Shown here one piece after another: positions 15,248 through 25,479 of a stretch of 64,000 bases of DNA. The notes under the pieces were generated by a model, which made no database searches, had not been told where the DNA came from, and was given only the letters and a program-made list of their open reading frames with translations. Each line of letters begins with the position of its first letter. The first letter of the stretch is position 1. Position numbers and translations under genes: made by a program. Origin of the DNA: Eledone cirrhosa (lineage: Eukaryota); contig OZ024741.1 in the NCBI GenBank assembly GCA_964016885.1, positions 389,298,001 through 389,362,000 of the forward strand, read 5' to 3'.

Positions 15248-16960
<1,713 letters not shown>

Positions 16961-17814: not shown

Positions 17815-19545
17815 TTTCTAGTGGTGTAGTTGAGCTTAACTTTATTTGGGAGTTGTCTTCTCCTACAGATGTCGAACCAGATGGAGTTGGTCTGTTTTTC
17901 GATCTGGGTTGCAGTCATATATACAGAGATCCCGGACATGACTGCAGCCCAGATCGAAAAACAGACCAACTCCATCTGGTTCGACATCTGTAAGAGAAGA
18001 CAACTCCCAAATAAAGTTAGGCTCAACTACACCACTAGAAATAGCAGACTGCCCCCTTTCTACCACCTCATCAAGACCCACAAGAATAGTACTAAGACAC
18101 AAATAAGACCCATCGTCTCTAGCATAGAAGGACCCCTATACAAAATTTCCTGGCTCCTCTCCCAGGTCCTCAAGCCTCTACTCTCCACCTTTCCCGGGCA
18201 TGTCAGTCGCTCCGACGAAGTCATACGTAGACTACACCAACTCCAGCCAGAACAACTTAAACTAAATAGATACGCCTTTAGCCTCGACGTTGTCTCCCTC
18301 TACACTACAGTCCCCGCTCATCCAGCTGTCGATTTATTGACGGACTGCGTGGTCGCAGAGGACATCCACTGCTACGGCTTCCTTCCGACGGACATACACC
18401 AGCTTTTGTCCTTCACAGTGGACAACACGTACTTCACCTTCCACCACCACACATACAGACAGACAACAGGATTACCCATGGGATCCAGCCTATCGGGCCT
18501 GCTGGCCATCACCTATATGAACCAGCTAGAATACCGAGCCCTCAACACCTGCCATTCCCATACCTTCTTCACCCGATATGTAGATGACATACTCATCCTT
18601 ACATCATCCCGTGAGGAGGCGGATAAAATATACACAACATTCTCCAGCATGGACGCCAGTATAAAGTTCAGCATGGAACACCCCGATGACCGCGGATCCC
18701 TATCCCTACTGGACTTCCAACTCAGGGTAACAGAGGAAGGCAACATCCACACTTGCTTCTATAAAAAAGCCGCCAGCAGGGACCTGTTCGTACATTTCAG
18801 ATCGGCCCTCCCAGCCAGCGCTAAGTTCGGATACATAAGGAACGAACTAACACGTATCCGGAACAAATGCACCGACGCTAGAGACCGAGACACACACACC
18901 ACACATTTCCTGGAAGTACTCAAACTGAACGGATACACGACATCCACCACAAACCGTGCCAGAAAGAACAGAGGACACCACACCCGAGGCACTAACACTT
19001 GCTTCCTGAAGCTTTCACACTTCAGTGACGAAACAACAACAGCCATCCGCAGAGCTATCAGACGAGAGGGACTAGATATCCAACTGACCCACTCAGGTCC
19101 TTCTCTACGCGGACAGCTAACCAAAAGACACTCCACCAGACATGACAACCGCTGCAGGCTAGCCAACTGCCTCATCAACGACACAGACCTATACCACCAG
19201 GCTTGCGTCGTATACAGACTAGAGTGCGACAAATGCAGCATCTTCTACGTATGTAGCACCACCAGACCACTCCACATAAGAATAAAAGAACACCTCAATA
19301 CTAACGCTTCCTCATTTAAGAAACACCTAGTTAAATGTAAAAACACCGACAAAACCATAACAGTTAGGATAGAAACTAAGGAAAGAAACCTCGGCAATCT
19401 TAGAATTAAGGAATCACTAATTATAGACAAAACACAACCACCAATCAATAATAGACTAGAACTCAACACCCAATTTATAACTTGATAGAGCATCTAGCCC
19501 CATATTTACACCACCACGCCCTCCCACACACACACGCACACACAC

Positions 19546-22458: not shown

Positions 22459-23100
22459 GCTTAGACTCTCAGCAAGTGAAAGTCCGGCCCCTAGAAGCGG
22501 ACCTCTTAACCATTCTGCCCTGCTATGTCCACAACAAATTTCTTAACTATTCTGCCATGCTGCATCCAAGAAGCACATGTTCATAATCTTAATCCCAAAA
22601 GTTTAAAAGTAATTAGGCAAATGAACTTTTAATATGCCCCCACCCATATAAAGGTGCATAATCACAATTATGATTATATCTGACTATTACCTGTGCATAC
22701 ATGCAGAATCTCACAACTACATATATAAGAAGAGAGAGGTGAGGAAAGGTAGGAGAGATGAGAGAGAAGGAAAGAGGGCAGAAGGAGTGTGGGAGTGGAG
22801 GGAGAAGAGAGGGGGTAGGAATGGAGAGAGAGAGAGGGAGAGAGAGAAAGAGAGCAGACAAATAAACAATAATTTGTTTTCATATTAAAATCGTAAATTG
22901 TTCCATTGCAATATATTGTATCAGCGTGGTGATGCGCTTTTGTAAAAATGTGGCCATGTGTGGTGTGCAAACATGAATGTGTGTAAATATGTGAGAGAGA
23001 AAGAGAAAGAAAAAGAGGGAGGGAGGGAGAGAGTGTGTGTGTCGTTTTCATCTGAATATATCGAGATAAAAGTGGAGGTGGAGTCTGGTTTGTGTCCTAT

Positions 23101-23320
23101 GTCACTTGCCTATTAAAACTTCGGAATTTGTCATGTGCTTACAAACATCAGTCACGAGGACAAACTGAAAAAAAAAGTGTGGGTTAAAAAAAAGACAAAT
23201 AGGGAAAAGAAAGCGTATTACAGAGGTGGATCACGTGATTAATTATTACCAGGTAATCTAGCGGCCTCTAACCCAACGCCAGCTTAGTATATAGTACATT
23301 TCGTACGCTCATTCACAGTG
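23101..23320 (+). promoter_or_regulatory. Putative promoter with M-box and E-boxes (MITF/TFE-type), Otx-like site and TATA-like box
   Basis: GTCATGTGCT at 23130-23139 (vertebrate M-box is AGTCATGTGCT); ATCACGTGAT 23230-23239; GTCACTTG 23101; GTCACGAG 23151; TAATCT 23254-23259; TATATAG 23288-23294. Confidence 0.6.
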
Positions 23321-23489
23321 AAGCACTTGTAAGTTTCGGAACTCTGAGGGATCTTAATGGCTTGTTAACCCTAACACCATACGCAGAAGGGCGAAATAAT
23401 AACCTTGCAACAACAACAAAAATTTGTGTTTGTTGAGGATTTTTTTACACTTTCACTTTAAAAGAAATATTTAAATATATTTACAAAAT

Positions 23490-23637
23490 ATGCATCACCG
23501 TTTAGCTATGGATGTTCCTCAAGCATTTGTGTGTATCCTTTTCGTCTTATTACTGCCCTCAGTTTCTGCACAATTTCCCCGAATATGCACACAAAATGCT
23601 ACCACAGTTGATGGAATTTGTTGCCCAATAAGGCCAG
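23490..23637 (+). CDS. First coding exon of a tyrosinase-family (TYR/TYRP1/DCT-like) gene
   Basis: MHHRLAMDVPQAFVCILFVLLLPSVSA|QFPRICTQNATTVDGICCPIRP: signal peptide, then the QFPRxC-x11-CCP N-terminus characteristic of TYRP1/DCT/TYR. Donor CAG|GTAAAT at 23638, phase 1. Alternative ATG at 23508. Confidence 0.85.
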
Positions 23638-24515: not shown

Positions 24516-24588
24516 GGTCCGGTAGCTCAGTCGGTAGAGCAGCGGACCCGTAATCCGAAGGTTGTGGGTTCGATTCCCACCCTGATTA
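24516..24588 (+). tRNA. tRNA-like gene/pseudogene, anticodon position CGT (Thr-like)
   Basis: 73-nt cloverleaf: D arm GCTC/GAGC, anticodon stem CGGA/TCCG, T arm GTGGG-TTCGATT-CCCAC, followed by TTTT. The acceptor stem is imperfect and position 33 is C. Confidence 0.6.
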
Positions 24589-25479
24589 CTTTTCCTATCT
24601 GCATTTCTTCCTATTTATTATTATTATTTAACTTATTTGTTGATAAATATTTTTATTAATATTAATATAATATCCTTGCATTGCCTGGAAAAAAGTGGAT
24701 TACAGGGAAAAATGCGGGCGCATGTAAAGAAATATTCTTAAATTAATAAACCTAGAAAAGTAAAGGACAAGTTATTACACCTGGAAAAGTAAAGGACAAG
24801 AAAACTTCTTAAAATATTGCAGCTAAAGTCTAAACTTGAAAAAAATATTTAGATTATAAAACTAAAAATAAATAATTATAAGTTAATTGTTAAAAAAAAT
24901 ATCACTGGAAAAATGACTGTCTTATAGGGAGAGTTGACTACTGTATACTTAATTTTTTTCTTGGTGTATACAAATTAATCTTTTTAAAATAAAATTTGTA
25001 CAATAATTTGTACAATAATTTGTACAATAATTTGTATAATAATTAATTAATAATAATAATAATTAATATGTACAATTTATTAATTTATGTTATAAGATAT
25101 TTAAAAATTTTCACTCTTAATCAAATTATATTTTTAAAAATTTAGTTATAAAATAATGCAGTAAAATAAATCAAAAACAGTGCATCATATAATTGCACTT
25201 TTTATGAGTATTACAGATTTTTTTTATAATATAGTAAAATTCAACATCTCAAGGGGCAAAATTAGGTAAAAGTCAATTCATCAATTATTCATTTATAGTG
25301 AATCAATCAATTATAGTGAATTCATCAATTCATTAGATGAACTGTTGAATTAGACAATGTTTAATTTTTAATTGTAGTCTAATTTTACTCTACCTAAAAA
25401 TGTAGATTGGTTATTTTGATCTCTGACAGGTCTTAAATTTCATTATTAAACAATTATAATCTGTTATTATTTATCATTA

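Follow-up and report, generated by a model that had tools for sequence, protein, structure and literature searches.

The window analyzed here, a 64-kb stretch of octopod DNA, sits on contig C2 of a 3.0 Gb genome with molluscan hemocyanin-like clusters, and it holds the 5' end of a five-exon gene of approximately 120 kb whose coding sequence starts at the ATG at 23490. The first coding exon (23490..23637, plus strand), delimited by its reading frame and a GT-AG donor, encodes a signal peptide and the start of a Cys-rich domain, and coding exons 2–5 follow past the window end at G000:C2:389370534-389441507. The joined coding frame runs for 1,626 nt (541 aa) without an internal stop and has GT-AG borders at 4/4 introns. 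The protein is 82% identical to its Octopus orthologs, 80% to that of Argonauta and 65–66% to two cephalopod-like proteins, one of which clusters with Sepia pharaonis TYR. A preliminary description of this DNA had taken the downstream gene to be a tyrosinase of a probable cephalopod, and the intact frame and the identity to Octopus bear this out, the animal being an octopod.

To judge from its sequence, the enzyme is a gamma-class (TYR/TYRP1/DCT-like), membrane-bound tyrosinase. Among proteins of solved structure, TYRP1 is its closest match (E 6e-52), it aligns with vertebrate TYR, TYRP1 and DCT at 33–35% identity, and the signal peptide, Cys-rich region and transmembrane segment that characterize the gamma subclass of type-3 copper proteins (PMC3658974) can all be read from the alignment; in the tabulation drawn on from that source, molluscan tyrosinases stand under the alpha subclass only. 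The six metal-binding histidines are present (FHYY, FAHGG, WHR, THNQVH and LHHAF), and the HH at CuB is TYR-like, being common to fish TYR and absent from TYRP1 and DCT. Exon 2 has its own locus as its sole genome match (1/39 candidates), and the gamma-class tyrosinase is a single gene in this genome. Acidic di-leucine words are sorting signals to melanosomes; the C-terminal tail EEQPIF (L017:7272-7507, exon 5) resembles such a signal, falls close to the acidic di-leucine word in an alignment with fish TYR and is kept in 4/4 full-length cephalopod orthologs aligned, and a nemertean protein carries a similar word.

Outside the cephalopods, the best matches include nemertean (41%), priapulid, flatworm, annelid and chiton proteins. 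In a quick tree built from 48 proteins 400–830 aa long (shorter and longer matches being excluded), the cephalopod sequences form a loose group with those of nemerteans and flatworms (SH-aLRT 87), outside the deuterostome group (92), and no one-to-one orthology with vertebrate TYR, as against TYRP/DCT, appears among these 48 proteins. The relationships point to vertical descent, with the octopod gene as a probable co-ortholog of TYR, TYRP1 and DCT jointly; an orthogroup joining Tyro-1 with these three is already found in the supplement of PMC12240821. Horizontal transfer from chordates is ruled out by the nemertean, priapulid, flatworm, annelid and chiton relatives and by the five exons spread over 120 kb.

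Upstream of the coding frame, one 2,035-nt contig of run X4 begins at 23296, follows the genome with zero differences to the exon-1 donor and then departs from it. Its length equals a leader of 194 nt, the 1,626 nt of coding sequence and a further 215 nt ending in a GT microsatellite 3' of the stop codon. Judged from this length and from its exit at the exon-1 donor, the contig behaves as a spliced mRNA, and its 5' end is a bound on the transcript start rather than a mapped start. The 5' untranslated region under this transcript-like contig covers 23296..23489 on the plus strand, subject to the same bound, and contains an upstream ATG with a 3-codon ORF at 23357–23368. The results support the region upstream of 23296 as the real promoter of the octopod tyrosinase, under constraint. 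This proximal promoter (23088..23295) shows lower divergence than its flanks, and a repeat origin is ruled out, since it is single copy except for a GA/GT microsatellite.

The constraint is measured against a second species (organism B), for which run X5 returned one contig over 23056–24018 with 85 differing letters, as well as upstream pieces. Of the other runs, X1–X3, which may come from the source sample, added no independent support, and X6 (RAD-seq) covered very little of the region. A metagenome scan for more distant cephalopods gave one spurious match of 18 residues. The difference tables for organism B list 40/100 and 40/46 places; as less-supported rows are among those shown, the listing should be complete for single-contig differences within the promoter core. 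The promoter (208 bp) shows 10 listed substitutions, a divergence of 4.8%, and the flanks (633 bp) show 75, or 11.8% (Fisher p=0.003), the flank total including an intron count of 48 obtained by subtraction. In the worst case, with all six unlisted differences of 23056–23500 placed in the promoter, the value becomes p=0.025.

The promoter signal rests on two sites, not on five or six. The first is an M-box, GTCATGTGCT at 23130..23139 (plus strand, 166 bp upstream of the contig 5' end), which with the T before it matches the vertebrate M-box at 10/11 positions and has its flanked CATGTG core (23131–23137) proximal to the contig 5' end, as expected of an M-box target. The second, ATCACGTGAT at 23230..23239, is a palindromic T-CACGTG-A E-box of the CLEAR type, 66 bp upstream of the contig 5' end. 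Both are predicted MiT/TFE sites, and each 10-mer is the sole copy in the 64-kb window (for GTCATGTGCT, on either strand). Against a chance background of 300,732 unmasked bases, drawn from the window together with 26 further loci of the same genome, at least two T-flanked CAYGTG words within 300 bp have P=0.001 (1/1,177 background 250-bp windows; 15/20,000 dinucleotide shuffles). The same value, P=0.001 (23/20,000 shuffles), is obtained for an M-box that matches at 10/11 positions and has its core intact; gene class and motif were set beforehand. The M-box match and the palindrome of the preliminary description are thus both in the sequence and, as a pair, above chance, and the motif span it put at about 160 bp measures 159 bp (23101–23259).

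In organism B the M-box is the same, within a 37-bp run without substitution, and G23235A turns the palindrome into T-CATGTG-A on the minus strand, which is still MITF-type. Core substitutions that keep a MITF site number 2/18, G23235A among them; it is also a CpG transition, a kind seen in 6/41 listed substitutions checked, so mutation bias can account for the E-box change. At the divergence of about 12% of this one relative, chance alone leaves a 10-bp word intact with P=0.28 (P=0.28–0.41 per motif), so motif-level conservation is not significant. Alignment with a relative, along the lines of the check proposed earlier, upholds a constrained promoter in which both sites stay MITF-type.

The other words that had been read as regulatory inputs are present, but most do not hold in that role. 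Two GTCAC words described as E-box variants (23101..23108 and 23151..23158, both on the plus strand and the same in organism B) are not MITF-type sites: the first is a CACTTG E-box whose core is not MITF-type and the second, CACGAG, is no CANNTG E-box; two GTCAC within 300 bp are not above chance (P=0.06). TAATCT at 23254, the same in organism B, had been linked to OTX2, yet TAATCY is at chance level (P=0.27, 5,622/20,000 shuffles), and Otx2 is listed for photoreceptor or neuronal clusters in 4/4 of the rows listed from the squid retina (PMC12240821) and is no listed marker of the Tyro1+ cells. This TAATCT belongs to a 45-bp substitution-free block (23236..23280) with several TAAT/ATTA homeodomain-like cores, which is the longest invariant run, lies beside the boxes and has P=0.07 at the flank divergence rate. 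The TATA-like TATATA at 23288..23293 (plus strand) is doubtful as a TATA box: at 8 bp upstream of the contig 5' end it is too near to be that of the X4 transcript, TATAWA has P=0.84 by chance, and its first T is changed in organism B (T23288A). Initiation is probably not set by TATATA, although the main start may lie near 23311–23320, which would restore the TATA reading.

A factor suited to the two sites appears to be encoded in the same genome. The one MiT/TFE locus found lies on C1 at 147.88–147.94 Mb, and its basic region and helix 1 equal MITF at 23/25 positions; the residue that opens the query results from reading into the intron, and the real codon there, which the intron splits, specifies Ile, the equivalent of I212. 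Helix 2 and the zipper match MITF/TFE3, and as predicted from the locus the genome's MiT/TFE retains the MITF basic region. MITF recognizes both CACGTG and CATGTG when flanked by 5'T/3'A, and such flanks are unfavourable to MYC/MAX; differentiation targets are typified by CATGTG M-boxes (PMC6672050). It binds CLEAR, E-box and M-box sequences with similar affinity (0.9–2.6 nM) through I212, the CLEAR oligo co-crystallized with MITF holds the identical ATCACGTGAT 10-mer, and MYC/MAX read CATGTG poorly (PMC6355916).

In the fly, the V-ATPase is the main target of Mitf (PMC6355916). Four V-ATPase genes served as a positive control, with start codons located for three (G, F and c, but not c''). In V-ATPase G, GTCATGTGAC stands 79 bp before the start codon in a CpG-rich patch (L062:3036, G000:C10:3636036), V-ATPase F has a palindrome at −744, and V-ATPase c has no MITF-type site within 1.5 kb of its start codon, which makes 1/3 of the located starts with a site within 300 bp and 2/3 within 1.5 kb. 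This control lends modest backing to a putative Mitf/CLEAR regulon in the octopod. First exons of the alpha-class tyrosinase genes, meant as a promoter contrast, were not located in 11 loci.

Orthologs of the octopod gene mark pigment cells of the pupil ring and of the skin in squids. Tyro-1 of Euprymna berryi (EB00850), an ortholog as judged by eye from the probe sequence, marks a ring of pigmented cells round the pupil together with Rab32 and Hps1 (PMC12240821), and in Loligo vulgaris cluster 8, which contains chromatophores, is marked by a tyrosinase transcript (PMC9839350) whose top match is XP_014779110.1, an octopod-gene ortholog. Expression is restricted, with 27.9% vs. 2.0% of cells in Euprymna (PMC12240821) and 34.6% vs. 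2.3% in Loligo (PMC9839350). Of the proposal of a pigment or ink gene, the pigment part agrees with these markers; for an ink role no evidence was found, and the published Sepia ink-sac 'tyr' qPCR primers (PMC13739555) translate to words of an alpha-class paralog and not of the gamma-class gene, and the primer spacing is 159 vs. 160 bp in the alpha-class paralog L046 (G000:C5:76.70 Mb). The account of the Octopus ink proteome in PMC10142993 names peroxidase and hemocyanin as recovered. As to the suggested co-expression check, Mitf in the Euprymna retina table is a marker of Photoreceptor_r2 and Endothelial (2/2 among the matches listed) and not of Pigmented_Tyro1+ (PMC12240821), although marker tables do not show absence of expression.

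The closest parallels to this promoter are vertebrate and molluscan. MITF activates the vertebrate TYR, TYRP1 and DCT promoters through M-boxes (PMC6672050), and the octopod resembles these in enzyme subclass, in the T-flanked CATGTG of the proximal promoter and in the conserved MiT/TFE basic region. Unlike vertebrates, it has one enzyme gene rather than three, an extra CLEAR-type palindrome and one MiT/TFE locus found, and neither OTX2 input nor a TATA box is supported at its promoter. In the abalone Haliotis iris, MITF activates the tyr promoter in luciferase, yeast one-hybrid and RNAi experiments (PMC13544226), and in Pteria penguin the same was shown by E-box deletion (PMC8173187). The likeness to these two lies in the molluscan Mitf-tyrosinase link; the Pteria boxes are CATGTG words at −1.6 to −1.8 kb with a weak effect, whereas the octopod has two flanked sites within 170 bp. 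The Euprymna and Loligo genes are compared as orthologs that mark pigment cells; the accounts of them drawn on here deal neither with the promoter nor with control by Mitf. With the Mitf/TFEB CLEAR regulon (PMC6355916) the octopod shares the identical ATCACGTGAT 10-mer and the like sites at V-ATPase G and F; unlike CLEAR targets, its gene encodes a pigment enzyme restricted to certain cell types and has an M-box as well. Chiton eye pigment cells contain Mitf (PMC4689004), and in ascidians and a cubozoan Mitf has been connected with pigmentation (PMC3626940). Among the titles and opening lines of abstracts listed in the literature search, which covered papers outside subscription, none tells of an M-box in a cephalopod tyrosinase promoter. 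Since the link was already shown in abalone and pearl oyster, the surprise attached earlier to MITF-tyrosinase wiring was overstated, and the octopod promoter, with its predicted sites, would be a further instance of a known link.

The explanation we favour, and consider probable, is that this is the conserved promoter of a single gamma-class tyrosinase whose M-box and E-box would be bound by an MITF/TFE factor that activates the gene in pigment cells. The proposed wiring gains from two non-random MITF-compatible sites, kept as such in organism B, and from a MiT/TFE factor with the MITF basic region, while its TATA, OTX2, GTCAC and ink components find no support. In such a mechanism, MiT/TFE dimers would occupy both boxes and activate the tyrosinase. 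Because Mitf is broadly expressed, cell-type restriction needs partners, and these factors, probably on the TAAT-rich block adjoining the E-box, would restrict the tyrosinase to pigment cells. The EEQPIF tail, as an acidic di-hydrophobic word, may then sort the enzyme to a melanosome-like lysosome-related organelle. It seems more likely that the MITF-tyrosinase link was inherited than reinvented; the letter-level likeness to the vertebrate M-box reflects binding preference and not aligned ancestral sequence.

CACGTG-class boxes are also bound by USF, SREBP and others, and the sites could instead be read chiefly by such ubiquitous bHLH-ZIP proteins (USF foremost, SREBP and MYC/MAX less likely), with homeodomain factors giving pigment specificity. 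The genome has about 57 HLH matches, Mitf is no listed marker of the squid Tyro1+ cells, for which Id4 is the only HLH-domain marker among 7 retina rows (PMC12240821), and it is next to the boxes, not on them, that the longest run without change (45 bp) is found. We nevertheless regard this reading as unlikely, as the 5'T flank on both sites favours MITF and disfavours MYC/MAX, one site is CATGTG and the other tolerates a change from CACGTG to CATGTG, a word that MYC/MAX read poorly, and SREBP is listed under photoreceptors and not Tyro1+ cells in the same table (PMC12240821).

A different emphasis keeps the MiT/TFE factor and makes its binding part of a general lysosome/organelle (CLEAR) programme of many tissues, with no pigment-cell master switch; it overlaps the favoured explanation and departs from it in emphasis alone. 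The symmetric CLEAR-type proximal box, the like sites at V-ATPase G and F, the standing of the V-ATPase under Mitf in the fly (PMC6355916) and the detection of Mitf, according to the squid retina table, in about 10% of the cells that lie outside its marker clusters (the meaning of the table column being inferred from Seurat convention) would all fit. The tight restriction of the ortholog in Euprymna and Loligo, and the CATGTG M-box that typifies differentiation targets, make it quite improbable. Slimmer still is the chance that the E-boxes are random words in a promoter constrained for other reasons. Motif-level conservation short of significance (P=0.28–0.41 per motif), the mutation of one box in organism B and the fact that familiar motifs were sought across many windows would suit such an account, whereas the low chance probabilities of the pair of sites (about 1e-3) and of the 10/11 M-box (1e-3), obtained at the single gene predicted, and the retention of the site class by the sole core change argue against it.

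If binding by MITF is correct, direct MITF control reaches a protostome co-ortholog of TYR/TYRP1/DCT, which favours an ancestral MITF-melanosome module over convergence. A larger idea, tentative and in our estimate rather doubtful, is that cephalopods keep a bilaterian-inherited melanosome module in which a membrane tyrosinase under direct MITF/M-box control would be sorted, by a di-hydrophobic tail and Rab32/BLOC-3, to iris and skin pigment granules usually thought to be ommochrome-based, and in which this enzyme may even be the true ink-gland melanogenic enzyme in place of the secreted alpha-class tyrosinases. Nothing is overturned, as vertebrates and two other molluscs were already known to have tyrosinase under the control of MITF. 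The practical yield is a candidate promoter of 200 bp for pigment cells, with two targets for point mutation, in a group amenable to CRISPR, along with the realization that work on cephalopod 'tyrosinase' combines enzymes of two subclasses.

Several minor features accompany the locus. Upstream of the tyrosinase, a Penelope-like element carries a reverse transcriptase ORF of 551 aa at 17830–19485 (plus strand), a GIY-YIG fragment, also Penelope-like, lies at 16119–16709 (minus strand), and further Penelope-like copies occur in the tyrosinase introns. Intron 1 contains a tRNA-Thr(CGT) or tRNA-derived SINE at 24516–24589 and, over 41100–64000, many copies of a unit of about 400 bp with very long AT-rich microsatellites between them. 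Elsewhere in the genome, more than 10 alpha-class tyrosinase-like genes, several with PTTTTT-repeat tails, stand in tandem at G000:C4:94.3–94.8 Mb, and a hemocyanin-like gene is present as three tandem copies at G000:C1:173.7–173.9 Mb and as an inverted pair at C26:21.9–22.0 Mb.
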